NCBI GenBank assembly: GCA_963762145.1
Contig: CAVXJS010000009.1
Span: 96,001-160,000 of the forward strand
DNA from: an uncultured Candidatus Rokubacteria bacterium
Lineage (GTDB): Bacteria > Methylomirabilota > Methylomirabilia > Rokubacteriales > CSP1-6
DNA length: 64,000 bases
Direction: 5' to 3'
Shown here: piece by piece, positions 27,546 to 46,400 of the stretch
Layout: each line of letters opens with the position of its first letter
Position numbering within the stretch: position 1 is the stretch's first letter
Notes under the pieces: model-generated
What the model was told of the DNA's origin: nothing
Seen by the model: the letters and a program-made list of their open reading frames with translations, nothing else
Database searches by the model: none
Made by a program: the position numbers and the translations under genes

Positions 27546-27554
27546 GCGGTCCCG

Positions 27555-28016
27555 CTAGCGCACTCCGACGTCACGGGGTACCGGGTGCTCGGCCACCACC
27601 GACGGCCGATCGAGCGCGGTCGCCCCCCGGCCGTCCGGGACGAACTCGCGGGCGAGGCGGACCTGGTCGCGCGCGGGGGCCACCATGCCGAGCTCGGTGC
27701 GGGCCTTGCCCTCGATGCGCGAGAGCGACTTGAGCGTGGCCATCTCCACCCGCAGCCGGCGATTGAGCTCCTCCGCCTCGGCCCGGCTGCCGCGGAGCGC
27801 GTCCAGGCGATACGACAGACGCACCTGCTGCACGCGGAGCCCCACCACGCCCAGGATCAGCACCACCGCCAGGCCCGCGCCCACCACCGCGGTGGCCATC
27901 GAGCGGAGCCGGCGCCGGTCCTTCTGGTGATGCCGCCGCACCGCCTCCGGCTGCCGGGCACGGTGCTCGCGTCCCCACGCGGACTGGGGCACGGCGCGGA
28001 CCACCCGGGCGCTCAT
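27555..28016 (-). CDS. ftsL: Cell division protein FtsL
   Basis: TM helix plus coiled coil, RIEGKARTELGM; lies between rsmH and ftsI. Confidence 0.85.
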   Translation of the reverse strand: MSARVVRAVPQSAWGREHRARQPEAVRRHHQKDRRRLRSMATAVVGAGLAVVLILGVVGLRVQQVRLSYRLDALRGSRAEAEELNRRLRVEMATLKSLSRIEGKARTELGMVAPARDQVRLAREFVPDGRGATALDRPSVVAEHPVPRDVGVR

Positions 28017-29077: not shown

Positions 29078-29081
29078 TTTT

Positions 29082-29534
29082 CTAGACGCCCTTCTGGGCG
29101 AGGCGCTCGCGCAGGTCGTCGAGCGGGCCCGCGTTCTCGCGCTGATAGTGCGACCAGCGGTCTTCGTCCCAGATCTCGAAGTGATCCATCATGCCGATGA
29201 TCACCACGTTCTTGGCAAGGGCGCCGCGCTCACGATAGTCCTGCAGGATCTGGATGCGGCCGTGCGGATCGAGCACGACGTCGAGACCCGCGGAGAGGTA
29301 CACGTGCTGGAAGCGACGACGATCCGGATCGAGCTTGGCCAGCGTGCTCACCTTGTCCTCGAGCTCGCGCCATTTGTCCTCCGGGTACACGTCGAGCGAC
29401 GTGCCGTTGGGCGCCATCACCAGGCGGTCGCTGCCGCCCTCCCGCAGCACGTCCCGGAACTTCGCCGGGATGCTGAGGCGTCCCTTCGGGTCGATCGTGT
29501 GCCTGAAATGGCCCCGAAACACTGTCTCCCCCAC
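29082..29534 (-). CDS. mraZ: dcw transcriptional repressor MraZ
   Basis: FRGHFRHTIDPKGRLSIPAKFR, DPHGRI and HFEIWD. Confidence 0.96.
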   Translation of the reverse strand: MGETVFRGHFRHTIDPKGRLSIPAKFRDVLREGGSDRLVMAPNGTSLDVYPEDKWRELEDKVSTLAKLDPDRRRFQHVYLSAGLDVVLDPHGRIQILQDYRERGALAKNVVIIGMMDHFEIWDEDRWSHYQRENAGPLDDLRERLAQKGV

Positions 29535-29757: not shown

Positions 29758-30544
29758 CTAGCGGGCCGGGCGGTAGTACGTGAGGGCCTCGGGCAGCCAC
29801 CCCTCGATCTGCTGGATCCGGGTGGCCTCCGAGGGGTGGGTCGAGAGGAACTCGGGGGGGCGCTGGCCCTTGGCGGCCTCCGCCATGCGCTTCCACAGCT
29901 CGAGCGAGGCGCGCGGATCGTAGCCGGCCTTGGCCATCAGGATGAGGCCCACGTGGTCCGCCTCCGACTCCTGCGCGCGGCCAAAGGGCATCAGCACGCC
30001 GACCGAGGCGCCGGCGCCCAGGGCCGCGGTCACGAGCTGCACGGTCGCCGGATTGCTGCTCGCCATCCCCGCCAGCACCTGCGTCATCGTCTGCACGCCC
30101 ATCTGCTGGCTGACCCGCTCGCCGCCGTGACGCGCGAGCACGTGAGCGATCTCGTGGCCCAGCACCGCGGCCAGACCCGCCTCGTCGCGCGTGATCGTCA
30201 GCATGCCGGTGTAGACCGCCACCTTGCCGCCGGGCAGCGCAAAGGCGTTGGCCTGCTTGTCGTCCTGGATGACGCGGAACTCCCACTGGTAGTTCAGATC
30301 GGTCACCGCGGCGATCCGGCTGCCCACCCGCTGCACCAGGGCATTCGCCTGCGCATCGGTGGACAGGGTCGCCTTGCCGACGATCTCCTTGAAGGACTGC
30401 GCGCCCATCTGCGCTTCCTCGCTCGGCGAGACGAGCTGGAGCTGGTGCCGGCCCGTGTAGGGCACGGTATCGCAGCCGATGGAGACCGCGAGGACGACGC
30501 AGGACGAGACGGGCGACGGTGAGTCGGCGACGCACGACGGTCAT
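29758..30544 (-). CDS. M48 (Oma1-like) zinc metallopeptidase, probable lipoprotein (indel near the N-terminus)
   Basis: NAFALPGG, HEIAH, QESEAD and FLSTHP. Confidence 0.92.
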
Positions 30545-30545
30545 T

Positions 30546-31091
30546 CTACCAGAGACGATTGCGGAGGGTGGCCTGGGTCTCCATCAGCACGCCTGTTCCC
30601 GCGCTGCCGACCTCGAGCCGCGCCCGCACCGCGATCACCGCCGCGGGATCAGTGGTCTCCACGCCCTCGCGATCGAGATAGACCAGCTGGAACGCGCGCA
30701 CGCCGTTGATGACCGGCTGCGCCCCGCCTCCGGCATCGCGGCGCAGGATGGACTCCCCCGCCCGCAGCAGGTAGGTCACGCGCTCCCGGGTCGGATCGAT
30801 GACCCCGTTGCCGTTCAGGTCCCGCTGGAATTCGACGCGGGCCGGCTCGGCCACCACGACGGGGGCGATGCCGGCCGCGGTGGGATCGTACCCCGCCTCG
30901 CGCAGCTCGCTCGCCATGCGCTCGAGCGCGTAGCGGGTCGACTGCTGCGCCTCGACGCGCGCAGCGCCCCACACCCACGCGTGGAGCCCGAGGTGCAGTA
31001 GCGTGGCGCTGGCGGCCAGCATGCCGCCGCCGATCGCCATGGCCACCAGCATGTCGACCAGTGAGTACCCGCGACTGCGCCGTGCCCGCAC
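30546..31091 (-). CDS. Prepilin-type N-terminal cleavage domain protein (PilW/GspJ-like)
   Basis: RG|YSLVDMLVAMAI plus a hydrophobic helix; ALERMASELREAG; DLNGNG. Confidence 0.75.
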   Translation of the reverse strand: MRARRSRGYSLVDMLVAMAIGGGMLAASATLLHLGLHAWVWGAARVEAQQSTRYALERMASELREAGYDPTAAGIAPVVVAEPARVEFQRDLNGNGVIDPTRERVTYLLRAGESILRRDAGGGAQPVINGVRAFQLVYLDREGVETTDPAAVIAVRARLEVGSAGTGVLMETQATLRNRLW

Positions 31092-31167
31092 GCCCGCCAG
31101 CCTCGCGCCCAGGCCCGGATCCGCACAATGCCGACCTTTCTGGACGCCTCGGCGTGGATACGCTCGC

Positions 31168-31278
31168 TTCGAGCGCGGGCTCCGCCCGCGCAATCCTGCC
31201 TTTCGGGGGAGGCAGGGAGGAGTGCGCCGTCAGGCGCGCGACGACCGTCGGAAGGGGGCGAAGCCCCCTCCGAGCTAC
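31168..31278. repeat. ~110-bp three-hairpin interspersed repeat, copy 2
   Basis: Closely similar to 9745-9853; ends in CTAC, overlapping the amidase stop codon. Confidence 0.85.
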
Positions 31279-32693
31279 ATCGGCCGCAGATGCGCCCAGG
31301 GCGCGATCTTCTCGAACGCGGCCGAGGCCCGCAGCACGGTGGCGTCCTCGAAGCGCCGGCCCAGGATCTGCAGCCCGATGGGCAGCTTGTCGCTCGTGAA
31401 CCCGCAGGGCACCGACGCGCCCGGGATGGCCGGTCATGTTGAACGGGTACGTGAACGGGATCCAGTCGTAGATCCCGGTGGCGGTGCCCGCGATCTCGCC
31501 GGGGCCGTCGAGGCCGACCTTGAAGGCCGCGCACGCGATGGTCGGCGTCAGCAGCAGGTCGTAGCGCTCGAAGAGCCGGCGCGGGTGCTCCTCCCAGGCG
31601 AGGCGGTCGAACCAGGCCTGGACGAACTGGGTGGGGCTCCAGCTCTGGGTCTCGTCGGCGATCGCGACCAGGCCCGCGATCGATGTCGTCGCGTCGATCG
31701 CGCAGCGCGGGACCGAGGCGGGCGGCGATGCCGCCCAGGAACATGGTCCGCCACGCCGCCTGCGGGCTCGGCCACCGGGGCGAGACCTCCTCCACGCGGC
31801 AGCCCAGCTCGCGGAACCGCCGCGCCGCGCGCTCGCAGGCCGCCTTCACCTCGGGATCTACGACCTTGGCGAAGCCGAGATCGGCGGTCCACGCCACGCG
31901 CAGCCCCTTCACGCCGCCCTTGAGCGCCTTGACGTAGTCCACGCGCGGGCCCGGCAGCGAGAAGGGATCGCGCGCGTCGGGCCCCGCGCACGCGTTCAGC
32001 ATCAGCGCGGCGTCCGCCACCGTGCGGGTCATGGGCCCGATGTGCGAGAGCCCCCACGCGGCGCTGAACGGATAGATCGGCACGAGGCCGAACGTGGGCT
32101 TGATGCCGTAGATGCCGGCCAGCGAGGCCGGGATGCGGATCGAGCCGCCGCCGTCGGTGCCGATGGCGAGCGGGCCCATGCCCGGCGGCCACCGCCGCGC
32201 TGGCGCCGCCGCTCGAGCCGCCCGGCGTGCGATCGAGGTTCCACGGATTGCGCGTGGCGCCGAAGAGCAGGTTGTGCGTCGCCCCGATCCAGCCCAACAT
32301 CGGCGTGTTGGTCTTGCCGAGCTGGATCGCGCCCGCGGCCTGCATGCGCTCCACCATCGGCGCGTCCTCGGCGGGCACGTTGTCGGCGAAGAGCCGCGTG
32401 CCGAACGTGGTGCGGATGCCCCGGGTGATCACGAGGTCCTTGGTGGAGAACGGCACGCCGTGGAGCGGCCCGAGCTTGGCGCCCTTCTTCATCACCGCGC
32501 GCTCCGCCGCGCGCGCGTCCTTGAGCGCCTGGTCCGCGGTCAGCGTGACGAAGGCGTTGAGCGCGCGGGTTCAGCCGCTCGATGCGGGCGAGCACCGCCT
32601 TCATCACCTCGACCGGGGAGAGCTTCGCGGCGCTTGATGGCGGGGCCATCTCGGACGCGGGCATCCAGCAGAGGTCGTCGGCACGTCGCTCAT
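31275..32693 (-). CDS. Amidase signature family enzyme (frameshifted)
   Basis: LHGVPFSTKD, GKTNTP, TPGGSSGGA, GTDGGGSIRIPA and LPIGLQI. Confidence 0.92.
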
Positions 32694-32725: not shown

Positions 32726-33631
32726 CTAGCCGCCGCGGAGGCGCGGATCGAGCGTGTCGCGGAGCGCGTCGCCGAGCAGGTTGGAGCCGAAGACGGCGAG
32801 GCTGATGGCCAGCCCCGGGAACAGCACGAGCCACGGCGCCTTCTGCGCGTACTCCGCCGCGGAGACCGAGAGCATCCGGCCCCACGAGGGATACGGCTCG
32901 GGCACGCCGAGGCCCAGGAACGACAGCGCGGCCTCCACCAGGATCGCGCTGCCGAGCTGCGCGGTGCACAGCACGATGAACGGGCCCATGGTGTTGGGCA
33001 GGACGTGGCGGAACGCGATGCGCAGGTGCCGGAGGCCGACCGCGCGGGCCGCCTCCACGTACTGCATCTCGCGGATCGACAGCACGCTCGCGCGGATGAC
33101 CCGCGCCGCCCGCGGGATGATCGGGATCGAGATGGCGATGATCACGTTCGGGATCGACGGTCCGAGCGCCGCCGACATCACCAGGGCCAGCACGAGCAGC
33201 GGCAGCCCCTGCAGGATGTCCATCACCCGCTGGGTGATGAGATCGGTCTTGCCGCCGATGTAGCCGGACAGGAGCCCGATGATCCCGCCGAGCACCGAGC
33301 CGAGGAGCGTGGAGGCCAGAGCCCGACGATGAGCGAGACCCGCGCGCCGTGGACGATGCGCGAGTAGATGTCGCGCCCGAGGTGATCGGAGCCCAGCCAG
33401 TGGTCGGCCCCCGGCCGGGCCAGGGTCTGCGCCGCGTCGGTCGCGATCGGGTCGTGGGTCGCGAGCTGGTTGGCGAAGACCGCGGTCAGCGAACATCACC
33501 ACCATGAGCACGCCGCCGACCGCGCCCAGCGGCTTCTTGCGGCAGAAGCGGCCGAGCACGGTCCACGCCCCCGGCCGGCGCAGGCCGATGCTGACCTGCG
33601 GCACCTCGACCCCGAGCGGCCTAGTGGCCAT
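32726..33631 (-). CDS. Peptide/nickel ABC permease (DppC-like), frameshifted
   Basis: LGSDHLGRD, YVEAARAVG, EAALSFLGLG and LGDALRDTLDPR. Confidence 0.9.
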   Translation of the reverse strand: MATRPLGVEVPQVSIGLRRPGAWTVLGRFCRKKPLGAVGGVLMVVMFADRGLRQPARDPRPDRDRRGADPGPAGGRPLAGLRSPRARHLLAHRPRRAGLAHRRALASTLLGSVLGGIIGLLSGYIGGKTDLITQRVMDILQGLPLLVLALVMSAALGPSIPNVIIAISIPIIPRAARVIRASVLSIREMQYVEAARAVGLRHLRIAFRHVLPNTMGPFIVLCTAQLGSAILVEAALSFLGLGVPEPYPSWGRMLSVSAAEYAQKAPWLVLFPGLAISLAVFGSNLLGDALRDTLDPRLRGG

Positions 33632-34577
33632 AGCGGACGCGCGGGTCGAGGACGCCGTAGAGCATGTCCACGACCAGGTTGGAGACGATGACCACGATGG
33701 CGATGAACATGACGAGGTTCTGCACGATCGGGTAGTCCCGCCAGAGGATCGCCTCCACCAGGAAGCGCGCGAGCCCGGGCAGGTTGAAGACAGTCTCGGT
33801 CACCACGAGCCCGCCGATGAGGAACGCGAACTCGATGCCGATGACGGTGACCACGGGCAGGATCGCGTTCTTCAGCGCGTGGCGCCAGATCACGACGCTG
33901 CCGGACTGGCCCTTGGCCCGCGCGGTGCGGATGTAGTCCTCGCGCATCACCTCGAGCAGCGACGAGCGCGTGATGCGCATGATCAGCGCCGACGAGCGGT
34001 AGCCGACCGCGAGCGACGGGCAGCGCGAACTGCACCGCGTGGAGCCAGAAGTTCTCGGACGGCGACACGTAGGTCACCGGCGGGATCCAGCCGATCCACG
34101 CGACCAGCCCCAGGATGATGACCATGCCGAGCCAGAACGACGGCATGCTGAGGCCGGCGAGGCTGAACACGCGCAGCGCGTAGTCGAGCGGGGTGTCCTG
34201 GCGGACCGCGCTGATCACGCCGAGCGGGACGCCGAGCACCACCGACACGATCAGCGACAGCATCGCCAGCTCGAGGGTGACCGGGATGAGCGGGCGGATG
34301 ATCTCCCACGCGGGCAGATCGTAGCGGTACGACTTGCCGAGATCGCCGGTCATGATCTGGCGCATCCACTCGACGTACTGCACCCACACCGGCCGGTCGA
34401 GTCCCGAGCTCCTTCACGATCGCCAGCCGCTCCACCGGGTTCACGTAGCCCGCCGGTGGAGAAGAGAATGTCGACGATGTCGCCCGGGGCCAGGCGCAGC
34501 ATGCCGAAGATCACGATCGACATGCCGAGCAGGGTCAGGAGGCCGATGCCCAGCCGCTGGGCGATGTACGTCTTCAC
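33621..34577 (-). CDS. Peptide/nickel ABC permease (DppB-like), frameshifted
   Basis: GDLGKS, SMPSFW, EDYIRTARAKG, HALKNA and LDPRVRY. Confidence 0.9.
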
Positions 34578-34603
34578 CGTCGAGCCCGGGGCGCGCGGGT
34601 CGC

Positions 34604-36211
34604 TTACTTGTCCCGCCACACGTCGGCCATGCGGCCGAAGTTGTAGATGTTGTCGTGCGGGATCAGGTTCTTCACGTGCGGCCAGAACGTGAAGTAGTCG
34701 AGCCTCCAGTCGAGGATGGGCCGCGCCGCGTCCTCCTCGACCTTGCTTCTGGAGCCCCGCGAGCAGCAGCAGGCGCTTCTGCGCGTTGAGCTCCTGGGAC
34801 TGCTGGTCGACCATCTTCATCACTTCCTCGCTGCAGTACTGGCTGTAGTTCCGCGGCGAGCCGCAGGCGTAGTTCTCGTAGTAGTTGGCGTCCGGCTCGT
34901 CGACGCCGAGGCCGGTGAGGTTGGCCCCGATCTGGTAGTCGCCGCGGGTGGCCATCGCGTGCCACTGCGCGGTCTCCACCTGCTTGAGGCTGGCCTCGAT
35001 GCCGACCTGCTTCAGCTCGTTGATGACGAAGGAGGCCATGTCCACGTAGATCGCGATGGCCCGGGTCGCCATCTCCACGCTGAGCGGGTTCTGCGGGGTG
35101 ATGCCCGCCTCGCCGAGCAGCTTCCGGGCGCTGCGCCTTCATGTCCTCGGGCTTGCCGTACCCGGGGAGGCGCGGCGAGGTCCTTCTCGAGCAGCCCCCA
35201 GACGCCGTACGGCTTTGGCTGCATCGAGGCGCCCAGCACCGCGCCGCCCTGGTGCACGGCCTGGATGAGCGCGCGCCGGTCGATCGCGTAGCTGACGGCC
35301 TGCCGCACCTTGGGATTGTCGAACGGCGCCTTCTTCGTGTTCATGATGATGTTGTCGCTCACCGCCTGGGCGACCGGCGTGATCACGAGCTGCGGGACGG
35401 CCTTCTTGAGCTGCTCGGCCGCGGTCTTGGTGGTCTCGCCCGGGAACGAGACGTCGAGCTGCCCCGACTGCAGCGCGGCGACGCGGGTGCCGCGCTCCTT
35501 GATGATCACGTAGCGGAGGCTGTCGAGGTAGGGACGGCCCTTCATGAAGTAGTCCGGGTTCTTCACGTAGTCCACGAACTCGCCCTTCCGCCACTCCTTC
35601 ACCTTGAAGGGACCGGTGCCGATGCAGCCGGTGCGATACGTGGCGGGATTGACGTGGGCCGCGTAGATCGGCGTGTAGCCGGAGGCGAGCATGTTGAGCA
35701 GGCCCGGCTGCGGCCGCTTGAGCCGGAAGACCACGGTATGGGAATCCGCCGCCTCGACCGCCTCGAGGTTCGCGTACCAGTCCTTGCGGGGATTGATCCG
35801 GAGCTTCCCGGTGGCGTCTGGGGCCTCGCGCAGCATGTCGAAGGTGAACTTCACGTCCTTCGACGTGAACGGCTGGCCGTCGTGCCACTTGACGTTCTTG
35901 CGCAGGAAGAAGACCAGGTTGCGGTAGTTGTCCTGCCAGGACCATTTCTCGGCGAGCTCGCCCACGATGTTCTCGGGGGTCTCGGGCCGCTTCAACTGGT
36001 CGAAGACCACCAGGTTGTTGAAGCACGGCATCGACGGGAACGAGGTGGAGATCGTCGAGGACTCGTGAACCGCGAAGCCCGGCGACAGGTCCTCCCTGAG
36101 CATGATGTTCAGATGCCCGCCGGACTTCGGCGTTTGGGCAGTGGCGGCGCCCGCCCCGAGGACCAGCAGGGACAGAACCAGCACCAAGGGCATGCAGCGG
36201 GAACGCGTCAT
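34604..36211 (-). CDS. Family 5 ABC substrate-binding protein (frameshifted)
   Basis: Signal peptide, QTPKSGG, WHDGQPFTSKDVKFTF, IGTGPF and NPKVRQAVSYAIDR. Confidence 0.92.
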
Positions 36212-36376
36212 TGTGTCCCTCCATTCGCGAGAACGCCGGGGCGGTCGCGGGTGAAGCCGGAGTCGGAAAGTGCTGAAGAATATACGACAATGCGCCGACT
36301 CCGACAACTGCTACCGCCCCGGCGCCGCGGCGGGCCCGCGGGCCCAACGGCCCGGAGGGCGCGTGGAGGCCGGCGC

Positions 36377-36889
36377 CTAGACCGTGGCGTGCGGCTCCCG
36401 GATGCCCCGGCGCACGTCGCGGCGGGTGAGCAGCTCCTCGAGCGCGATCGTGCGGGCTCCGCCCCGGCGCCGCAGCTCGGGCCGCGTCAGGATCGGGCGC
36501 TGGCGGATCTGCGAGGCCAGCCCGTTCCGCACCGCTCGGTCGGCGTAGAGGCTCCGCAGCGCGCGGCACATCAGCGGCCGGCCCCGGTTGTACCCGAAGC
36601 GGTGCTTGTACTCGTCGGCCGTCAATCCGTGGCTTCGCAGGTGCGTATTCGTGAGCTGGCGAAAGACGCCGCCGCAGACGAGGCAATGGATCGCGTCCTC
36701 CTGCACGGCCTGCCGCGGATCGGCCCGCAGCCCGGACAGCGTGCGACGACTTCCGGCCGGGCTCGCGAAAAGACCCGCGCGACCGACGGCCGAGGCGGCA
36801 CGGACCCGGTCGCGTTGGATCGCCGGAGCACCGTTCCGGGGCGTGAGGAGCCCGAGCGAAGCGTTGAGCGGCGTGCCGACCTCGGACAT
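36377..36889 (-). CDS. Ros/MucR-family zinc-finger regulator
   Basis: QEDAIHCLVCGGVFRQLTNTHLRSHGLTADEYKHRFG...PL; AAGGAGG before the ATG at 36889. Confidence 0.85.
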   Translation of the reverse strand: MSEVGTPLNASLGLLTPRNGAPAIQRDRVRAASAVGRAGLFASPAGSRRTLSGLRADPRQAVQEDAIHCLVCGGVFRQLTNTHLRSHGLTADEYKHRFGYNRGRPLMCRALRSLYADRAVRNGLASQIRQRPILTRPELRRRGGARTIALEELLTRRDVRRGIREPHATV

Positions 36890-36947
36890 GTCAGCCTCCT
36901 TGAGAGATGAGCAGCAGATGAGGGAAAGAAAACATGCCCCTACACAT

Positions 36948-36963
36948 CGCAAACCAAATGCCA
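36948..36963 (-). promoter_or_regulatory. Sigma54 (-24/-12) promoter upstream of the MucR-like gene
   Basis: Minus strand TGGCATTTGGTTTGCG = GG-N10-GC, close to the TGGCAC-N5-TTGC consensus. Confidence 0.8.
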
Positions 36964-36979
36964 CGGAAAAAGGCAGTGA

Positions 36980-36992
36980 GATCAATAGCTTG
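36980..36992 (+). promoter_or_regulatory. Putative IHF-binding site
   Basis: GATCAATAGCTTG versus consensus WATCAANNNNTTR (mismatch only at W); lies between the sigma54 promoter and the dyad. Confidence 0.6.
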
Positions 36993-37022
36993 TCAAATTA
37001 GGTATTAACGGTCGGTGTTCGA

Positions 37023-37056
37023 CTGGTAAGAATCTGACCAGCAACTTGACCAGTAA
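37023..37056. promoter_or_regulatory. Putative enhancer (UAS): dyad plus direct repeat
   Basis: CTGGTAAGA-A-TCTGACCAG is an 8/9 inverted repeat; TGACCAGCAA and TGACCAGTAA are direct repeats 12 bp apart. Confidence 0.55.
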
Positions 37057-37084
37057 GGGCTTCTGCGTTAATCCTTACCGCGCG

Positions 37085-40000
37085 ATGGATCCTTGGAGCG
37101 ATCTCCTGGGACGGAGCGCCGCAATGGAGACCGTGCGGGAGACGGTCCGGCGGCTTCCGGGACGCCAGCACGCGGGCCGCCGGCTCCCGGCGATCCTCCT
37201 GCAAGGCGAGACCGGGACCGGCAAGGGTCTCGTCGCCCGGCTCATCCACCGCCTCGGTCCGCGCGCCACCGGGGAGTTCGTGGACATCAACTGCGCGGCG
37301 ATCCCGGAGACGCTGCTCGAGGCGGAGCTGTTCGGCTTCGAGCGCGGGGCATTCACCGACGCCCGCAAGGCCAAGCCCGGCCTCTTCCAGACCGCGCATC
37401 ACGGCACCATCTTCCTGGACGAGATCGGATCGACGCCCGAGGCGCTGCAGGCGAAGCTCCTGACCGTCATCGAGGAGCGTGTGGTGCGGCGGCTCGGCGG
37501 CACGCGGCCCGAGCCCGCGGACGCCTGGATCATCAGCGCCACGAACACGGATCTCCTCGCGGGCGTCCGCGAGCGCCGCTTCCGGGAGGACCTGTATCAT
37601 CGGCTCGCGGTGCTGACCCTGCGCCTGCCTCCGCTCCGGGAGCGCGGCCAGGACGTCCTGCTCCTCGCCGAGCGGTTCCTCGCGCGCGTCTGCGCCGACT
37701 ACGGCCTGCCGGTGAAGATCCTGGCCGCCGACGCGCGCGAGCGCCTGATCGCCTATCCGTGGCCCGGCAACGTGCGCGAGCTGTCGAACGTGATCGAGCG
37801 GGTCGCGCTCCTCACCGAGGAGCCCGTCATCACGGGCGAGCACCTGGGCCTGAGCGACGGAAGCCCGGCCCCCGGGCCCGCGCCGGCCGACGCGGGCGAC
37901 GCCCCGCCCCTGATCTCGTTCGGCGACGCCATACGCGCACACCTGCGCGCCACGCTCGATCAGACCGGCTGGAACATCTCCCGCACCGCCGCCATCCTCA
38001 ACATCTCCCGCAACACCGTGCGCGCGCGCATGGAGAAGCTGGGACTACGCGAAGGTCCTCCCGTCCCGGCGAAGCGTCACGCGCGCGCGCCGGGTGTCGC
38101 CCGCCCGGCCCCGAGGCCCCCCTCGCTCGCGTCCGTACCCGGACCCGCGGCGCGCACCGCGCCGCCCACCGTCCGCTGGGAGCGCCGGCCCATCGCCCTG
38201 ATGCGCGTGGCGCTCATGGTGCCGGAGGCCGGCGATGTCCTCTCGGACGCCTCGCGCGCGCTCGAGACGCTCATCGAGAAGGTCGAGAGCTTCGGAGGGC
38301 GGGTCGAGGCGCTCGGGCAGCGCGCCCTGGACGCCGCGTTCGGCGTGGAGCCCGTCGAGGACGCGCCGCGGCGCGCCGCCCACGCCGCGATGGCGATGCA
38401 GCGGGCCGTCGAGCGGATCCGCGGGGATTCCCTCGCCCCGCTCGCGACCCGGATCGCCATCCACGCGGCCCAGGCCCTGGTGGCCCAGGCGGGACGCATG
38501 ATCCAGATCGACCGGGAAGCGAAGGAGCAGAGCGCGTTCGTGCTGGACGACCTGATCGCGGCCGCCGAGCCCGGCGGGATCCTGGCCAGTCCCGCCGCCG
38601 GCGTGCTGCTCGAGCGGCGCTTCGATCTCGTCCCCCTCGATGGGACGGAGGAATCCCCGACCGCGTTCCGCCTCGTCGGGCGCGAAGGACCGGGGCTCAG
38701 CGCGGCCGGGCGCATGGCGAGCTTCGTGGGCCGCCATCAGGAGATGGCGGTGCTGCACAGCCGGCTGCTCTCGGCCCTCCGGGGCCGGGGCCAGCTCGTC
38801 AGCATCGTCGGGGACGCCGGGATCGGGAAGTCCCGCCTGCTCTACGAGTTCAGCCAGAGCGTGAGCGCGGAGCAGGCCGCCTACATCGAGGGGCGCTGCC
38901 TGTCGTACGGGAGCACGATCCCGTACCTCCCGGTGCTCGACCTGATTCGCGGCGTCTGCCGCGTCACCGAGACCGAGGGCGCGGCGGACGCGGGCGAGAA
39001 GATCAGGCAGGCGCTCGGGCGGGCGGGCATGGATCCGTCCAAGCTCACCCCCCACCTGCTCGATCTCCTGGGATACAAGGACGTCACCGAAGGGCTCGAT
39101 CTCGCGCCGCCCGACGCGATCAAGGTCGGTATCTCGGAGGCCCTCCGCCAGATCACGCTGGGCGCCAGCCACCGCCAGCCGTTGCTCGTCGTGATCGAGG
39201 ATCTCCACTGGATCGACCAGGCGTCGGAGGAGCTGCTCGCGTCCATGGTGGACGGCCTGCCCGGCGCGGCGGTGCTCCTGGTCGTGACCTACCGGCCGGG
39301 ATACGAGCCGCCGTGGACGAATCGATCCTTCGCCACCCAGCTCTCGCTGCCGCCGCTGTCGAACGAGGACAGCCTGACCGTCACGCGCTCGGTGCTTCCC
39401 GCGGTGGCGCTGCCCGACGCGGTCGCGGAGGTGATCCTGAGCCGCGCCGAGGGCAATCCGTTCTTCCTCGAGGAGCTCGCCCTGTCGCTCCAGGATCGCG
39501 GCGGCCTGGCCGCCGACCTGGCGGTTCCCGACACGGTGCAGGGCGTCCTGCTGAGCCGGATCGGCCGCCTCGCCGAGACCGAGCAGGCGCTCCTCCAGTC
39601 CGCCGCGGTGATCGGCAAGGACGTCCCGCTTCCGGTCCTGGCCGCGGTGACCGAGCTCGCCGAGGACCCGCTCGTGCAGGCGCTTCGCCAGCTGAGCGCG
39701 GCGGAGTTCCTCTACGAGGTCAGCAGCTTCCCGGAGGTCAAGTACCGGTTCCGGCACGCCCTCACCCACGAGGTCGCCTACGAGAGCCTCCGACCGGAGC
39801 GCCGCCGGTTGCTCCACGCCCGCATCGTCCTCGCCATCGAGGCGAGCCGCTCCGACCGTCTGCTCGAGGACGTCGGCCGCCTCGCGCATCACGCGACGCG
39901 AGGAGAGCTCTGGGAGAAGGCGGTGGAGTACGCGCGGCAGGCCGGCGCCAAGGCCGCCACGCGCTCCGCCCACCTGCAGGCGGTCGCGTACTTCGAGCAG

Positions 40001-41197
40001 GCGCTGGAGGCTCTCACGCGTCTGCCCGAGGATCGGGCGCGGCTCGAGCAGGCCATCGATCTACGCCTCGAGCTGCGCAACTCCCTGCACCCGCTCGGGG
40101 ACCCGGAGCGGATCCTCGCCCGGCTCCGGGAGGCCGAAGGGCTCGCCCGGACCCTCGACGATCCGCGGCGGCTCGCGCGGATCTTCTCGTTCATGACCCA
40201 GTACTACCGGCTGATGGGACACCTCGATCTCGCGGTGGAGTCGGCCGAGCGCGCCCTCGCGCTCGCCGACCGGCAGCGGGACGGCGCGCTCTGGGTCGTC
40301 GCGAGCACGTATCTGGGCTCGGCCTACGATGCCCAGGGCGAGTACCGCAAGGCGGCCGACGTGCTCCGCAAGAGCGTGGAGGCCCTGCCCGGCATCTCGA
40401 TCGGCCAGGACGCGCGCGTTGCCGGCCTCGTGCCGGTCTTCGCGCGGATCTACCTGGCGTACTGCCTGGCCGACATGGGCGAGTTCCGCGAGGGCCTGGC
40501 GTACGGGGACGAGGGCACGCGGCTCGCCGAGGCCGCGGATGACGCGTACAGCCTGATCTTCGCCTCCTGCGGCGTGGGCACGCTCCACCTCCTGCGGGGC
40601 GACGTGGAGCCGGCAATCGCCACCCTGGAGCGCGGGCTCGCGCTCTGCCGGACGCTGACGGTGCCGGTGGCGCTCCCGCTGATCGCGTGCGCGCTCGGGG
40701 CCGCGTACTCGCTCGCCGGCCGGTCGGGCGACGCGATCGCCCTGCTGGAGGAAGGGGCGCGGGAAGGCCTCGCGATCGGGAGGATGGGTGGGCACTCCCT
40801 CCTGATCTTCCGCCTGGGCGAGGCCTATCTCCGCGCCGGGCGCCTCGACGACGCCGACGACGCGGCCCGCCGGGCCCTGCTGATGGCCCGCGAGAAGCGG
40901 GAGCGCGGGCACGAAGCCTACGCCCTGCACCTCCTGGGCGAGGTGGCGGCCCGGCGGACGCCCAAGGATGCGGGCGCCGCCGAGGCCGCGCTCCGGCAGG
41001 CCTCGGCCCTCGCCGAGGAGCTCTCGATGCGGCCGCTCCTGGCGCACTGCCACGTGAGCCGCGCCCGGCTCGAGGGGCGGGCGGGGCGCGCCGCGACCGC
41101 TGGGCAGCTTCGCGACGCGGCCACCGCGGCCTTCCGTGAGCTGGACATGCCCTACTGGCTCGGGCGGGTGGAGGCCGAGGTCCGGCCGCTAGCCTGA
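37085..41197 (+). CDS. Fusion of sigma54 activator (AAA+ and Fis-HTH), degenerate class III cyclase, STAND ATPase and TPR domains
   Basis: GETGTGK, GAFTDA, FLDEIG, FREDLYHRL, WPGNVREL, HTH WNISRTAAILNISRNTV; second P-loop GDAGIGKS and IEDLHWID; GNPFFLEE; helical repeats at the C-terminus. Confidence 0.93.
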   Translation: MDPWSDLLGRSAAMETVRETVRRLPGRQHAGRRLPAILLQGETGTGKGLVARLIHRLGPRATGEFVDINCAAIPETLLEAELFGFERGAFTDARKAKPGLFQTAHHGTIFLDEIGSTPEALQAKLLTVIEERVVRRLGGTRPEPADAWIISATNTDLLAGVRERRFREDLYHRLAVLTLRLPPLRERGQDVLLLAERFLARVCADYGLPVKILAADARERLIAYPWPGNVRELSNVIERVALLTEEPVITGEHLGLSDGSPAPGPAPADAGDAPPLISFGDAIRAHLRATLDQTGWNISRTAAILNISRNTVRARMEKLGLREGPPVPAKRHARAPGVARPAPRPPSLASVPGPAARTAPPTVRWERRPIALMRVALMVPEAGDVLSDASRALETLIEKVESFGGRVEALGQRALDAAFGVEPVEDAPRRAAHAAMAMQRAVERIRGDSLAPLATRIAIHAAQALVAQAGRMIQIDREAKEQSAFVLDDLIAAAEPGGILASPAAGVLLERRFDLVPLDGTEESPTAFRLVGREGPGLSAAGRMASFVGRHQEMAVLHSRLLSALRGRGQLVSIVGDAGIGKSRLLYEFSQSVSAEQAAYIEGRCLSYGSTIPYLPVLDLIRGVCRVTETEGAADAGEKIRQALGRAGMDPSKLTPHLLDLLGYKDVTEGLDLAPPDAIKVGISEALRQITLGASHRQPLLVVIEDLHWIDQASEELLASMVDGLPGAAVLLVVTYRPGYEPPWTNRSFATQLSLPPLSNEDSLTVTRSVLPAVALPDAVAEVILSRAEGNPFFLEELALSLQDRGGLAADLAVPDTVQGVLLSRIGRLAETEQALLQSAAVIGKDVPLPVLAAVTELAEDPLVQALRQLSAAEFLYEVSSFPEVKYRFRHALTHEVAYESLRPERRRLLHARIVLAIEASRSDRLLEDVGRLAHHATRGELWEKAVEYARQAGAKAATRSAHLQAVAYFEQALEALTRLPEDRARLEQAIDLRLELRNSLHPLGDPERILARLREAEGLARTLDDPRRLARIFSFMTQYYRLMGHLDLAVESAERALALADRQRDGALWVVASTYLGSAYDAQGEYRKAADVLRKSVEALPGISIGQDARVAGLVPVFARIYLAYCLADMGEFREGLAYGDEGTRLAEAADDAYSLIFASCGVGTLHLLRGDVEPAIATLERGLALCRTLTVPVALPLIACALGAAYSLAGRSGDAIALLEEGAREGLAIGRMGGHSLLIFRLGEAYLRAGRLDDADDAARRALLMAREKRERGHEAYALHLLGEVAARRTPKDAGAAEAALRQASALAEELSMRPLLAHCHVSRARLEGRAGRAATAGQLRDAATAAFRELDMPYWLGRVEAEVRPLA

Positions 41198-41631: not shown

Positions 41632-42705
41632 CTAGCCGCGAGCGTCCTCCACTCCCTCGAAGAACTCATCGGCGTGAAACACGCGCGGGACCGAGTCGAT
41701 GTCCCGCAGCATGTAGTGGTGCGCGGTCCCCTCGTACTCCTCGTGGAGACTCACGCGCTCGCCCCGGGCGAGGTCGAGGTACACCGCGGTCATGTTGTGC
41801 TTGCCGGTCAGGTCCAGGAGGTTGGTGCTGGACGTGAAGCGGCCCGCGTTGATCTCGGTGACACGCGGAACCTGGCGCGCGTCCTCCTTGAGGTCCACCG
41901 CGAACACGCCCGAGGCCTTGCGATCGACCGCGCGGATGGCCCGGACCGCGACCTCGAGCACCCGCGGCTCGTGGACGGTCTTGGTGAGCGCGCCCACCGC
42001 CGACACCTCGCTGGGCTGACTGGCGCTGCCGAGGTACGACAGGCGCTCGTACGTCTTCGCGAGGGCCAGGCGGCCGTCCTTCCACACGCTCTGGCAGCCG
42101 AAATCACGGCCCGGCAAGTACTCGGACAGGGTGAACGCGGAGACCGGGATCCCCCGCATCGTGCGCCAATATCCGATCCAGCTTCGAGCCTGGTCCGGCC
42201 CCGCGACCGGCGCCGCGCCCCGCGAGCCCGCACCCGTGCGGATGCGACACCACGCGCGGGCCGGATTTCCCAGCCGCTCGAAGATGCGCTCGAGCCGCCG
42301 CAGGTCGGTCACCCGATGGGTCGCGGGCGCGGGCACGCCGCGCGCCCGCAGCCACTCGATGAGGACGTACTTGTCGCCGCAGCGCTCCACCGTGGCGGCC
42401 CGGGGAAGGAAGAGCCGCCCGTCGAGCGCGCTCCGCGCGCGCGAGAGCGCGGCGACGTCTCCGTCGCCGGCGGGGATGACGAGGTCGATCCGCTCCGCTT
42501 CCACGATCCGGCGCAGCGAGCGACGCCACCCCGGATGCGCGATCGGAGGGACGAGATAGTTGCGATCCGCGGTGGAGTTCTTGAGGATGAACTGGTCGTC
42601 GTGGCAGCCGACGATGGTGAGCCCCGCGGTCCCCGCCCGGAGACTCCGCATGAGGTTGACACTCGCTCCGCTGCCCGCGCTCGTAACGAGCAACCGCGCG
42701 TCCAT
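41632..42705 (-). CDS. ATP-grasp enzyme (PylC/CarB-like)
   Basis: LLVTSAGSG, IDLVIP, DKY, GAGSRG, EYLPG and VDLKED...TEINAGRF. Confidence 0.85.
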   Translation of the reverse strand: MDARLLVTSAGSGASVNLMRSLRAGTAGLTIVGCHDDQFILKNSTADRNYLVPPIAHPGWRRSLRRIVEAERIDLVIPAGDGDVAALSRARSALDGRLFLPRAATVERCGDKYVLIEWLRARGVPAPATHRVTDLRRLERIFERLGNPARAWCRIRTGAGSRGAAPVAGPDQARSWIGYWRTMRGIPVSAFTLSEYLPGRDFGCQSVWKDGRLALAKTYERLSYLGSASQPSEVSAVGALTKTVHEPRVLEVAVRAIRAVDRKASGVFAVDLKEDARQVPRVTEINAGRFTSSTNLLDLTGKHNMTAVYLDLARGERVSLHEEYEGTAHHYMLRDIDSVPRVFHADEFFEGVEDARG

Positions 42706-42825
42706 CGGCGCGGAGCCTAGACGATATCCAGCGCGACCGCAAGCGTCCCGCGCGCCCGACGATGGCGCTGTGCTTACTGGGTCCGGGCCCAAGCGCGAAT
42801 CACTTCACGCGCTTCCCGTCATGCG

Positions 42826-42862
42826 AAAAAAGAAACGGGCCGGGTCCTGGAGACCCGGCCCG
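42826..42862 (-). terminator. Rho-independent terminator after sodC
   Basis: 11-bp stem CGGGCCGGGTC/GACCCGGCCCG followed by TTTCTTTTTT on the minus strand. Confidence 0.8.
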
Positions 42863-42886
42863 CGCGATCGTCTCGCCGGCCCGCGA

Positions 42887-43408
42887 CTACTTCGCGATGA
42901 CCCCGCAGGCGATGCGCCCGCCGCTGTTGCCGGTGGGATCGGTCTTGTCGTCGTCGGGATTGGCGTGCACGACGAGCGAGGTCGGCTTGTCGCCGAGCAC
43001 CGAGTTGGGACCGGGGCTCAGGGTGAAGGCCTTCGTGGTGATGTCGATGCCGCCCTCACCCGACGCCGCCACCACCAGGTTGGGCAGGTCGCCCGCGTGC
43101 GGGCCGGCCGGGTTCTGGCGGCCGTGCTGCTTGCCGGTGGGGTTGAAGTGCGCGCCCGCCGACGTGAACTCCGGCGGCTCGCACAGCCCGACCGCGTGGA
43201 TGTGCAGCCCGTGCCCGCCCGGGGGCAACCGGTAGCCGGTCACCGCCAGGCGCACGCCTTCCGGGGTCTCGATGAACGTCGCCACGCCCACCGGCTTGCC
43301 GTCCTTGTCCTTGAGAGCCGCCTCGGCCGACAGCGGTCCCCGGTCGCCGGGCGTGCTCGCGCATCCGGCCAGCATTGCGGCCACCCCGAGCAGCAGTAGT
43401 GGTCTCAC
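42887..43408 (-). CDS. sodC: Cu/Zn superoxide dismutase lipoprotein
   Basis: LAGC lipobox, HGLHIH, GAHFNP, PHAGDL, VVHA and GNSGGRIACG. Confidence 0.95.
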   Translation of the reverse strand: MRPLLLLGVAAMLAGCASTPGDRGPLSAEAALKDKDGKPVGVATFIETPEGVRLAVTGYRLPPGGHGLHIHAVGLCEPPEFTSAGAHFNPTGKQHGRQNPAGPHAGDLPNLVVAASGEGGIDITTKAFTLSPGPNSVLGDKPTSLVVHANPDDDKTDPTGNSGGRIACGVIAK

Positions 43409-43427
43409 CGTTGAGTGCCCTCCTCGT

Positions 43428-46400
43428 TCAGTTGAGCTGCGCGATGAGCTGCTTGGCCTTCTCCCGGAACCGCGCCACGCCCTCGAGCTTGATGTGCTCG
43501 TAGCCGCGGATCTCGTCCGGCAGCTCGGCGAGGGTCACCGCCGCGCGGTGCGTGACGGGGCTGAGCCGCACGAGCGCGGTCTCGATGAGCTGGCGGTACT
43601 CGGCGATGAGTGCCCGCTCCACCTTCCGCACCTCCGCGTAGCCGAAGGGATCGAGCGAGGTGCCCCGGAGGCCCTTCATGGCGCGGAGCATCCGGAAGGC
43701 GGGCGCGAACCAGGCGCCGAGCCGGATCTTCTTCTTGAGGCCGAGCGCGCGCAGGAGCGGCGGGTGGAGGTGCCAGTACGTACGGACCTTCTGGCCGAAC
43801 TTCGCCTGGAGCTGCGCGTCCACCGCCGCGTCGAGATGCAGGCGTGCCACCTCGTACTCGTCCTTGTAGGCCATGAGCTTGTAGAGGTGCCGCGCGACGG
43901 ACTCCGCGAGCCCCGCGCTGCCGGGCGCGCGCTCCACCTCCACCTGGACCACGCGGCGGACGAAGTCCACGTACTCGCCCGCGTAGGCCGCGTTCTGGTA
44001 CGCGATCAGCTCGGGCACGCGGATCTCGAGCAGGCGCCGGAGCTCTCCCGACGCTTCCACGCGATCCACCAGCGCCCGCGCCTCCGCGCTCAGCACGCGC
44101 GGGGCCTCGACCGCCTGCGCGGTGGCCTGGGCCACCGCGGCCTCCACCTGCGGTGCGGTCGACCACCGCCATCCGGCCCCACCGGAAGGCGAGCACGTTC
44201 ATGTCCACCGAGACGCCGTTGATCCGGATGGCCCGCTCGATGGCCGCGGCCGAGATCGGCAGCGCGCCCGCCTGGAAGGCGGCCCCGAGCATGATCGGGT
44301 TCACCGCCATGTGGTCGCCGAAGAGCCCCTCCGCGATGGCCTGGGCGTCGAGGTAGACGTTGTCGGATCCTTCCGGGTCACCCGGTCGATGCTCATCAGC
44401 ATGCTGCTGAGCTCGGGGAAGTGCACCGCGGTGTCCACCACCATCTGGCCGGTGGGGATCTGGCTCGTGGAGACCACCGCGATGGTGCGGCCCGATTCGG
44501 CCTTGTCCAGGTTGACCGGATCGGTGGACACCAGGAGGTCGAAGCCCAGGTAAAGGTCGGCGGCCTCCCGCCGAGATCTTGTTCGCGCGCTCGATCGGCT
44601 CGGAGCCGATCTTGAGGTCGGAGACCACCGGCCCGCCCTTCTGGCTGAGCCCGGTCTGGTCGAGCCCGCGCACGTGCCGGCCGTCGAGCATGGCCGCGGT
44701 GCCGAGGATCTGGTTCATGGTGACGACCCCGGTGCCGCCGATGCCCATCATGTGGAGCGCGAAGCCCTCGCCGGGCACCTTCAGCACCGGCTCGGGCAGC
44801 TCGACGTCGAGCGGGCGTGAGCCGCCGCTCCTTCTTCGCCGCGGGCGCGGCGCCCTCGATGGTCAGGAACGACGGACAGTCGCCGAGCAGGCACGAGTAG
44901 TCCTTGTTGCACGACGACTGGTGGATCGCGGTCTTCCGTCCGAACTCGGTGTCGATCGGCTGCACGGACAGGCAGTTCGACTTCTTGCCGCAGTCCCCGC
45001 ATCCCTCGCACACCCGCTCGTTGATGAAGACGCGGGTCGTCGGGTCGACCATCTTGCCGCGCTTGCGCAGCCGCCGCTTCTCCGCCGCGCAGTGCTGGTC
45101 GTGGATCAGCACCGTGACGCCCGCTGATGGCCGCGAGCAGGGACTGGGCCTCCAGCAGCCGGTCGCGATGCCAGACCTCCGCGTTGCCCGCGATCGAGAT
45201 CCCCGAGTACTTGGCCGGATCGTCGGTCGTGATGATGATCCGCTTGACCCCTTCGGCCTCGAGGCGCCGGCTGAGCGCGGGAATGGGGAGAGCTCCCGCC
45301 GCGTTCTGGCCGCCGGTCATCGCGACCGCGCCGTTGTAGAGGATCTTGTAGGTGATGTTCACCCCGGAGGCCACCGCGTAGTTCAGCGCGAGCCCGCCCG
45401 AGTGGAAGAACGTCCCATCGCCGATGTTCTGGAAGAGGTGCGGCGTCTCGGTGAACGGCGCGATCCCGACCCACTGCGCGCCTTCCGCGCCCATGTGGGT
45501 CACCCCGATGATGCCGCGGTCCATCCCCATCGCCATGCCGTGACAGCCGATGCCCGCGGCGGCCACGCTGCCCATCCGGGATCACGGTGGAGCGGTTGTG
45601 GGGGCAGCCCGAGCAGAAGAACGCGGAGCGGGCCAGGGTCAGCGTCTTCGGGCGGCGCTTGAGCTCGTCGAGGTGCTGGATGCGCGCCTCGACCGAGTCG
45701 ATCCTGACGCGGCGGGCGAGGCGCCGGGCGATGGCGCGCGCGATGAGGTCGGAGTCGAGCTCGCCGACCGGGGACAGCAGGGGCCGGTCCTCCTCGTCGA
45801 GCTTGCCCACCACCTGCGGCCGGTCCGCCTGTCCGTAGAGCACGTCCTTGCAGAACATCTCGAGGAACGAGCGCTTCTCCTCCACGACGAGGATCTCCTG
45901 CAGCCCGCGCCCGAACTCGCGCACGATGCGCGGCTCCATCGGGAACAGCATGCCGATCTTGAGGATGCGGATGCCGTAGCGGCGCAGTGCCCCGTCGTCG
46001 AGCCCGAGCTCGACGAGGGCCTGGCGCACGTCGTAGTAGGTCTTGCCGCTCGTGACGATGCCGAGCCACGCGTTCGGCGACGCGATCGTGATCCGGTTGA
46101 GCTTGTTCTCGTACGCGTAGCGGCGGGCCAGCTCGAGGCGCGCCCCGTGAATCGTGCGCTCCATGTCGAGGCCGTAGGGCGGGATCAGGTTCACGTTGAT
46201 CTGGTGCTGGAAGGGCTTCCCGTCCAGCTCCACCACCGGGATGATCGGGCTCACGCGCTCCGGATCCACCTCGGCGGTGCCCGCCTCGTCCGCCACGTTC
46301 GTGACGATCTTGACGCCCACCCAGAGACCGGACGTGCGCGAGAGCATGAAGCCGTGCAGGCCGAGATCCAGGATCTCCTGCACGTTGCCCGGGTAGAGCG

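Follow-up and report, generated by a model that had tools for sequence, protein, structure and literature searches.

Sigma-54 activators and STAND/NLR proteins are two of the best-studied switches that act by assembling oligomers, and they have so far been studied separately. A gene in a 64,000-nucleotide stretch of DNA from an uncultured Candidatus Rokubacteria bacterium (GenBank assembly GCA_963762145.1, contig CAVXJS010000009.1, positions 96,001 to 160,000; hereafter the window) joins the two in one polypeptide, and this natural fusion poses the question of whether STAND multimerization can drive the assembly of an enhancer-binding protein (EBP) ring. The gene lies at window positions 37085–41197 on the + strand and encodes a protein of 1,370 residues, termed EBP-STAND here. 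From a Pfam scan, an NCBIfam comparison and motifs read in the translation, its order from the N to the C terminus is an EBP AAA+ core, a Fis-type helix-turn-helix (HTH), a proline-rich linker, a pseudo-cyclase, a STAND NOD and a tetratricopeptide repeat (TPR) region. We propose that EBP-STAND is a one-component switch in which a ligand-gated STAND module would govern EBP ring assembly at the adjacent promoter, a reading to which we assign a probability of about 0.6.

The gene is a single open frame of 1,370 codons plus a stop. Although an open reading frame is possible from 37046, the ATG at 37085 is the start of the orthologues, and an N-terminal extension is absent in L002–L005. The GC content at codon positions 1, 2 and 3 is 0.76, 0.50 and 0.93, and the contrast between the third and second positions suits a genome of ~70% GC and argues that the frame is a real gene. 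A misassembly, which the preliminary description of this DNA had named as one finding that would undo its interpretation, or a gene-calling error joining two genes, might be suspected from the frameshift-like breaks in two other genes of the window (the solute-binding protein and amidase genes described below). This explanation is already refuted by homologues from many assemblies and sources: 112 of the 120 clusters listed by a first protein search are 1,300–1,420 residues long, with 50–98% identity over ~100% of the length. A query confined to the junction (residues 230–600, comprising the lid, HTH, linker, pseudo-cyclase and start of the NOD) was also run against 201 genomes of the phylum, a set that includes the unpublished genomes G029, G058 and G101. 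Among the best 150 of 1,000 rows, which by hand count come from 87 genomes, 145 start at query position 1–2 and end at 361–371, mostly within open frames of ~1,350–1,500 residues. In a representative library of 1.84 billion proteins, 269 clusters at 50% identity match the junction at E≤1e-30, and window positions 36300–39300 are tiled, with 0–1 differences, by soil-run contigs of a separate study (X4).

The AAA+ core (37106–37846, + strand; assigned from Pfam, NCBIfam and alignment to structures) consists of Sigma54_activat (PF00158) at residues 8–179, with an E value of 6.5e-58 and a family cut-off of 20.2 bits, followed by AAA_lid_14 at residues 185–254. It contains the Walker A motif GETGTGK (residues 41–47), the L1 loop GAFTDA (88–93), the Walker B motif IFLDEI and the sensor II motif WPGNVREL. 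By NCBIfam comparison, residues 5–321 resemble the C-terminal two thirds of the ordinary EBPs PrpR, NifA, AtoC, NorR and PspF. The module also aligns to the structures of NifA, NtrC1, FlrC, ZraR and PspF with E values of 6e-64 to ~1e-57 (PspF ~4e-57), and in this alignment Walker A and B, the NCAA motif, the L1 loop and sensor II are all in place. The EBP Walker A motif is kept in 110 of 112 full-length homologues. Among the best 150 of the 269 library clusters, 86 have both Walker A motifs and the L1 loop, and in nearly all of these the EBP Walker A lies at residue ~38–46, so an N-terminal sensor is absent family-wide. The HTH (HTH_8, residues 285–319; 37937–38041, + strand; Pfam E=2.9e-09) is followed by a linker rich in proline, alanine and arginine, recognized in the translation and by its conservation (residues 320–362; 38042–38170, + strand). 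The linker is the least conserved segment of the protein: mean pairwise identity among 47 homologues is 0.70 for the HTH, 0.52 for the TPR region, 0.50 for the pseudo-cyclase and 0.35 for the linker. The genome encodes one rpoN (C11:886058) and has 21 strong Sigma54_activat genes, of which EBP-STAND is the sole one in an open frame of more than 1,000 residues.

The domain between the linker and the NOD (residues ~364–532; 38174–38680, + strand) was identified from its predicted fold and by alignment. Pfam gave it no match at E≤0.01 in a scan of the full protein and none at E≤10 with residues 361–553, and a PDB sequence search of the region returned chance-level matches only. An AlphaFold2 model of residues 361–553, built on a 48-row alignment (pLDDT 85.4, pTM 0.82), had 188 matches at E≤1e-3 in a Foldseek search of the PDB, and the top ones were all class III nucleotidyl cyclases (Cya2, 2w01, E=6.9e-11; CyaB, 3r5g; Rv1625c, 7yz9, TMq 0.71). 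The region aligns with the Pfam-positive Guanylate_cyc domains of relatives, which were used to set the catalytic columns in an alignment of 59 sequences, namely the window protein and 58 complete public-genome relatives (12 EBP-fused and 47 unfused in all). Split or frameshifted (L006, L024, L070), masked (L018, L038) and stop-containing (L022, L061, L069) homologues and open frames at contig ends were left out of the alignment. At the columns that we take, from textbook knowledge of class III cyclases, to hold the two metal-binding aspartates, the asparagine and the arginine, the window protein has A376, R413, F485 and D489. The expected residues are kept in 0, 1, 0 and 1 of the 12 EBP-fused sequences, respectively, versus 46, 47, 25 and 47 of the 47 unfused sequences. 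Because all four catalytic residues are replaced, the domain is termed a pseudo-cyclase and is predicted to be catalytically dead. It is nevertheless constrained and is not in decay, to judge from its identity relative to that of the linker. A homodimer prediction for the pseudo-cyclase scored 0.72, compared with 0.00 for the best of three controls, with runs agreeing in at least 94% of contacts and a pLDDT of 82; it passed a mark that, among proteins of solved structure, 20 of 30 one-chain pairs and 1 of 23 single chains also pass. Since class III cyclase dimers are solved structures, this result is read as likeness to them rather than as binding.

Residues ~551–900 (38735–39784, + strand) are modelled as a STAND NOD, composed of a P-loop nucleotide-binding domain, a helical domain and a winged helix, in agreement with Pfam (AAA_16, residues 547–732, E=6.2e-27) and the alignment. 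The motifs GDAGIGKS (residues 576–583), EDLHWID (705–711) and GNPFF (790–794) are present, and G579, G581, K582, E705/D706, H708, W709 and D711 are invariant over the 59 aligned sequences. A PDB sequence search with residues 540–1370 returned generic TPR proteins and no NOD. The predicted structure of residues 540–980 (pLDDT 89.3) matched Apaf-1 (1.2e-11), PH0952 (6mfv, 4.6e-11) and MalT (8bob, 1.5e-8, TMq 0.55) in Foldseek, with further matches to CED-4, Avs3, ZAR1, NRC2 and NOD2, the top ones at a probability of 1.00. The remainder of the protein (residues ~904–1370; 39794–41194, + strand) forms an arm and a TPR sensor region according to Pfam, PDB TPR matches and the model, with TPR families found across residues ~950–1320 (TPR_12 at 3.3e-15, TPR_MalT weakly). 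The layout is that of a STAND protein, with a repeat sensor C-terminal to the NOD and the N-terminal EBP module as the effector. These results bear out the domain order of the preliminary description, which had placed the AAA+ core at about residue 6 with no N-terminal sensor, followed by an internal Fis-type HTH, a proline-rich linker, a dead class III cyclase-like domain, a second P-loop ATPase of STAND type and about 450 residues of TPR-like helices. The motifs that it quoted (GETGTGK, GAFTDA, WPGNVREL, GDAGIGKS, GNPFF and others) are all in the translation, and of the Pfam families that it named, Sigma54_activat, HTH_8, AAA_16 and TPR were found and Guanylate_cyc was not detected.

The same description had called the protein NLR-like. 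The NOD fold is indeed shared, but the label is a loose one: the nearest proteins are the metabolic zinc-ribbon-cyclase-STAND-TPR proteins and NODs of the MalT, PH0952 and Apaf-1 type, and PADLOC matched no defence STAND model, its only matches being RtcR-like EBP models over residues 6–321. A conflict or defence function, in which an Avs- or NLR-like STAND senses an invader protein and responds by transcription, would fit the resemblance to Avs3 and plant resistosomes, the presence of several paralogues per genome and a TPR region that is among the more variable parts of the protein. We nevertheless consider it very improbable, given the PADLOC result, the signalling proteins (cyclase-STAND-TPR) that are the nearest relatives, and the stable metabolic neighbours (ABC transporter, amidase, ATP-grasp protein and oxidoreductase) retained across orthologues of 53–89% identity.

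The EBP-STAND gene stands alone on the + strand, flanked by minus-strand genes, and the DNA separating it from its divergent neighbour contains what is expected of an EBP-controlled promoter. The neighbour (36377–36889, − strand) encodes a 170-residue ROS/MucR-like zinc-finger protein (Pfam E=9.4e-15, profile positions 53–120) and is the putative target. Read along the minus strand from the EBP-STAND start, the intergenic region has CGGTAAGGATT (37070–37080), a CTGGTCA-N5-CTGGTCA repeat (37035–37053) and the overlapping palindrome CTGGTCAGATTCTTACCAG (37023–37041), conserved blocks which together form a candidate enhancer, or upstream activating sequence (37023–37080). These are followed by a conserved AT-rich block that holds a site, CAAGCTATTGATC (36980–36992, − strand), which is IHF-like when set against the IHF consensus, and by a sigma-54-type −24/−12 element, TGGCATTTGGTTTGC (TGGCAT-N5-TTTGC; 36949–36963, − strand), which reads toward the MucR-like gene from ~122 bp upstream of, and on the opposite strand to, the EBP-STAND start codon. 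Directly past the −12 element and close to where transcription is predicted to start is the conserved box GTGTAGGGGCATG (GTGTAGGGRCATG; 36933–36945, − strand), and then come a leader of ~50 nt, the Shine-Dalgarno sequence AGGAGG (36895–36900) and the ATG of the MucR-like gene.

This arrangement is conserved. Eight public loci (L002–L006, L008, L010 and L020), whose EBP-STAND proteins are 53–89% identical to that of the window, also have the MucR-like gene as divergent neighbour, and in each of them TGGCAY-N5-YTTGC has the offset that it has in the window. The repeat element, AT-rich block and promoter are conserved across the syntenic loci, with drift in the intervening sequence, and a search of the 6.26-Mb genome allowing ≤1 mismatch found a single copy of the palindrome CTGGTCAGATTCTTACCAG. 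With an estimated transcription start ~11 nt past the −12 GC, the positions relative to that start are about −43 to −55 for the IHF-like site and about −85 to −143 for the repeat element. Passages of a review of bacterial EBPs describe such geometry as usual at EBP-dependent promoters, where looping is helped by IHF (PMC7057263). Judged from sequence, an AAA+ domain with Walker A and B motifs, an HTH, an adjacent candidate enhancer and promoter, and a genomic rpoN are present, and it is most likely that EBP-STAND switches on the adjacent conserved sigma-54 promoter.

A survey of paralogues and their neighbourhoods, for which the preliminary description had called, bears out its expectation that the architecture may be common in this lineage. 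The junction query matches 156 of the 201 phylum genomes at E≤1e-10, and several genomes (G116, G138, G146, G165 and G019) have at least four rows each among the best 150. Besides the eight orthologous loci, 11 other fused loci have upstream DNA, and a divergent −24/−12 motif is found 100–153 bp upstream in 6 of these. Four (L009, L013, L018 and L024) match a strict pattern on the opposite strand at 100–153 bp, where ~0.03 matches per locus are expected by calculation, and two (L011 and L016) match a looser pattern at 109–112 bp. The divergent genes of the paralogue loci vary (an alpha/beta hydrolase, an ICMT-like methyltransferase, proteins of no known family), as do the putative enhancers, which consist of TGGTCA/TGACCA half-sites in L009 and of a CCACCACCAnCACC box in L011, L013, L016 and L024. 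The CCACCACCAnCACC box is located ~55–75 nt upstream of the divergent −24/−12 motif and is unlike the CTGGTCA-type element of the orthologues of the window gene.

The mechanism that we infer takes in DNA binding to the repeat element, sigma-54 dependence, ligand gating, oligomerization and the direction of control. At rest, the NOD would be held closed by the TPR region and arm. A ligand, which could be a metabolite, a peptide or a protein, would open the NOD and allow ADP to be exchanged for ATP, whereupon the NOD would multimerize and gather the tethered EBP cores, raising their local concentration. The AAA+ core and Fis-type HTH would bind the repeat and palindrome element at 37023–37080, and the AAA+ ring, using ATP, would convert the sigma-54 holoenzyme complex to the open form at the divergent promoter (36949–36963). 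The outcome would be expression of the ROS/MucR-like regulator and perhaps also of the ABC transporter encoded behind it. The poorly conserved, flexible linker of ~43 residues might absorb any symmetry mismatch between the two assemblies, and the dead cyclase domain would be retained as a structural module, probably for dimerization. Ligand gating is proposed as the most economical model, following MalT and other TPR-containing STANDs; in MalT-type activation, as outlined in parts of PMC6468293 and PMC4381067, the inducer leads to NOD opening and then to multimerization. The conserved neighbouring genes suggest that the signal is a peptide- or amide-related metabolite, although a TPR sensor could equally well recognize a protein partner.

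Several observations weigh against this proposal. EBP rings are hexamers or heptamers, whereas STAND oligomers vary in size. The −24/−12 pattern is not enriched in the window, with 10 matches versus 16.2 expected at ≤2 mismatches, and the promoter call was made because the element is positionally conserved across loci, not because of the pattern count. Five of the 11 paralogue loci have no convincing divergent −24/−12 motif by either the strict pattern or the looser score. A sigma-70-like promoter (36307→36279) is situated between the MucR-like gene and the solute-binding protein gene behind it, and for that reason the transporter genes may or may not be co-transcribed with the MucR-like gene. 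Two further points concern the L1 loop and the role of the C-terminal half, and each gives rise to a different explanation.

The L1 loop reads GAFTDA instead of GAFTGA in all 112 full-length homologues of the first search, and in the 86 motif-complete representatives it is GAFTDA in 75, GAFTGA in 9, GAYTDA in 1 and GAFTEA in 1. Within the same genome, the EBP at C15:347234 also has GAFTDA and another EBP has GSFTDA, the loop being unextracted in 9 of 23 rows. The glycine-to-aspartate change could have uncoupled the protein from sigma-54, leaving it to act through its HTH as a sigma-70-type regulator or repressor like TyrR-type relatives. Each GAFTGA residue is essential in mutagenesis studies according to the review cited above (PMC7057263), and in PMC10714721 no interaction with sigma-54 was detected for the GAFTDA-bearing VfmH of Dickeya, whose sigma-54 link is unproven, and the effect of the glycine-to-aspartate change is left open. 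On the other hand, a regulome study of Desulfovibrio vulgaris (PMC4641369) counts GAFTDA as one of the loop variants that should still be active and gives it for DVU2106, a listed sigma-54 regulator with target operons. The F and T of the loop are invariant among the homologues, 9 of the 86 representatives of the same architecture have the canonical loop, and the −24/−12 element adjoins the gene in 9 of 9 syntenic loci. Uncoupling from sigma-54 thus has, in our view, a slim chance of being correct.

The other alternative retains the target and the sigma-54 dependence of the preferred model and changes the sign of control, the C-terminal module being a cis-inhibitor and not a scaffold. The receiver domains of EBPs of the NtrC1/DctD type hold AAA+ cores inactive, and a pseudo-cyclase dimer together with a closed STAND/TPR region might restrain the cores of EBP-STAND in a comparable manner until a signal releases them, with no STAND assembly involved. 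The predicted homodimerization of the pseudo-cyclase is in keeping with this, as are the autoinhibitory contacts by which STANDs with TPR sensors are held (described in part of PMC6468293). Isolated EBP cores such as PspF1-275 are active alone, as stated in a section of PMC7057263, and an intrinsically active core needs only restraint. However, the Walker A and B motifs and the GNPFF region of the NOD are strictly conserved, which speaks for continued use of the nucleotide switch and of multimerization, its usual output. We therefore regard cis-inhibition as unlikely, though it is the alternative to be taken most seriously, and prefer the ligand-gated STAND switch.

A stronger form of the preferred model is a two-tier ATPase switch, in which a STAND hub resembling the apoptosome or resistosome templates the EBP ring on DNA. 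EBP-STAND proteins would then be a major class of regulator in Methylomirabilota/Rokubacteria, which arose by EBP capture and loss of cyclase function and whose paralogues each have their own TPR sensor and sigma-54 promoter. This remains tentative, and we would put its chances at somewhat under even.

The relatives of EBP-STAND give an indication of how the fusion arose. Residues ~380–1370 are homologous, at 25–45% identity, to unfused cyclase-NOD-TPR proteins, and loci matching this part alone are found in metagenome-assembled genomes (MAGs) labelled as Acidobacteriota-type classes, Actinomycetes, Desulfobacterales, Chloroflexota, Alphaproteobacteria and others. Eight of the 47 unfused sequences were sampled; seven have the order DZR-Guanylate_cyc-AAA_16-TPR, and the eighth, L034 (L034:5068–8730, a Minwuiaceae MAG), has BTAD (SARP), a weak cyclase (Guanylate_cyc, 3.1e-07) with the degenerate catalytic columns HDLR, AAA_16 and TPR. 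From these comparisons the C-terminal two thirds of EBP-STAND evidently descend from the zinc-ribbon-cyclase-AAA_16-TPR family. The simplest history is that an EBP and HTH replaced the zinc ribbon ahead of a cyclase-STAND-TPR protein and that cyclase catalysis was lost afterwards, and L034 suggests that the same course was taken with a SARP effector ahead of a degenerate cyclase-STAND-TPR protein.

Members of the family are named in databases just as 'sigma 54-interacting transcriptional regulator'. Those named in the first search come from Rokubacteria and Methylomirabilota MAGs, plus single Binatia and Limnocylindria labels. Spread to other phyla was considered on account of Limnocylindria and Deferrimicrobiaceae labels (L002, L003), but these loci are 82–83% identical and fully syntenic, are probably mislabelled bins and were not counted. 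A lead only, from the ESM Atlas, is a 1,099-residue Sigma54_activat+HTH_8+AAA_16 cluster with 63 members, most commonly of Acidobacteriota. Interrupted homologues also occur in public MAGs, one being split near residue 318–320 (L006:6001–10120) and others having internal stops (L022:5308–10257, L061 and L069); these may be either assembly errors or pseudogenes.

Several known systems share parts of this design. EBP-STAND resembles MalT of E. coli and PH0952 in its NOD fold, in its helical-repeat sensor, in combining sensor and transcription activator in one protein, and in having an adjacent uptake or catabolic system under its (here putative) control. The MalT effector is a C-terminal LuxR-type HTH that works with sigma-70 RNA polymerase, whereas that of EBP-STAND is an N-terminal, ATP-driven AAA+ sigma-54 machine, so that two ATPase/oligomerization modules stand in series with a pseudo-cyclase between them. 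AfsR/SARP-type STAND activators and L034 likewise have a transcription effector N-terminal to the NOD-TPR part; unlike EBP-STAND, they use a SARP/BTAD effector that works with the housekeeping sigma factor and have no AAA+ sigma-54 remodeller. Residues 403–1316 match positions 332–1254 of the TIGR03903 profile (TOMM kinase/cyclase fusion) at 5.6e-93. The protein falls outside that family, with a score of 312.7 bits against a cut-off of 705.75 and no kinase domain. It differs from the zinc-ribbon-cyclase-AAA_16-TPR proteins in having an EBP and HTH instead of the zinc ribbon and a cyclase domain that lacks the four catalytic residues and is below Pfam detection. An NTPase/TPR tail is also present in the full-length isoform of mammalian soluble adenylyl cyclase.

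On the EBP side, LevR-type sigma-54 activators of Firmicutes have an N-terminal HTH and regulatory domains C-terminal to the AAA+ core, namely PRD, EIIA and EIIB domains controlled by phosphorylation through the phosphotransferase system, and this layout is a precedent for an 'inverted' EBP. Pfam found no PRD or EII domain in EBP-STAND. PspF and HrpR/HrpS resemble it in having the AAA+ core at the N terminus, followed by an HTH, and lack the cis-acting N-terminal sensor typical of most EBPs, as noted in a section of PMC7057263. These proteins are controlled in trans (by PspA and HrpV, respectively), unlike EBP-STAND, whose HTH is followed C-terminally by ~1,000 fused residues of sensor machinery. 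Part of PMC13581612 lists MalT, AfsR and GutR as known non-immune STANDs that act on transcription; the novelty here is the sigma-54 effector and not a STAND that acts on transcription. The preliminary description knew of no characterized example, and our literature search likewise turned up no report of a sigma-54 activator joined to a STAND or cyclase module, although supplementary tables, which were outside the search, might list one. Both Pfam names occur in PMC12727194, where they apply to different gene groups.

Scans for sigma-70 promoters and terminators found no promoter of its own and no 3′ terminator for the EBP-STAND gene, and an Rfam scan of 36300–37150 gave only a sub-threshold match to CRISPR-DR20 (E=0.45). 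No Shine-Dalgarno sequence precedes the EBP-STAND ATG within 37035–37085 on the + strand. There the conserved half-site region reads TTGACC...TAATCC, which was not called by the promoter scan but could be the −35/−10 elements of a nearly leaderless transcript; if so, enhancer binding by the protein would also repress its own gene. The box at 36933–36945 on the − strand is more strongly conserved than the leader that follows it in the window and the eight orthologous loci, and it could be the start-site region or the site of a second regulator. An ATG inside the box shares the reading frame of the MucR-like gene in L006, but not in the window. An exact 232-nt contig at 37685–37916 was found in the X17 metatranscriptome and a few short contigs in X15, most of the stretch being uncovered. 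Since such contigs are few, are not able to show transcription, starts or strands and might reflect DNA carry-over, no claim of expression is made.

The MucR-like gene is followed, on its own strand and in synteny, by genes for an SBP_bac_5 solute-binding protein and two ABC permeases (32726–36307, − strand; assigned by Pfam, NCBIfam and synteny), which are possibly co-transcribed with it, and for an amidase. The best NCBIfam similarities of the solute-binding protein are to GsiB, NikA, Opp and Dpp, all below the cut-offs. Its gene is split over two minus-strand frames, 35012–36307 (profile positions 2–253) and 34350–35078 (302–364), and the amidase gene is split likewise (31548–32495 and 30815–32179, − strand). 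These breaks look like assembly frameshifts or indel errors, whereas the EBP-STAND gene is intact. On its other side, the convergent downstream neighbours (41632–44787, − strand) are syntenic with EBP-STAND and comprise an ATP-grasp protein, which is carbamoyl-phosphate-synthase-like with a weak PylC_N match, and a DUF6537/POR/TPP oxidoreductase set. Farther away are an M48 peptidase gene (29758–30465) and the start of the dcw cluster (25491–29534, − strand), with mraZ at 29082–29534, mraW/rsmH at 28013–29077 and a penicillin-binding protein transpeptidase with a PASTA domain at 25491–27554. The window opens (1–405, − strand; G000:C9:95905–96405) within the gene for a conventional sigma-54 activator, in an open frame of 496 residues that runs off the window start.

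Because its likely promoter, enhancer and target gene are all within 200 bp of the EBP-STAND gene, this locus offers a simple test system. The pseudo-cyclase is a clear case of an enzyme domain that, once a new effector had joined the protein, was retained in a structural role as a pseudo-enzyme, and the TPR sensors with their paired promoters could serve as new inducible parts. The 86 motif-complete clusters at 50% identity include 66 of at least 1,290 residues, which points to a large regulator family, with at least 66 full-length clusters, in an abundant uncultured soil phylum. If the two-tier switch is true, NLR-style induced proximity would directly power promoter melting in a class of regulators that has previously gone unnoticed.

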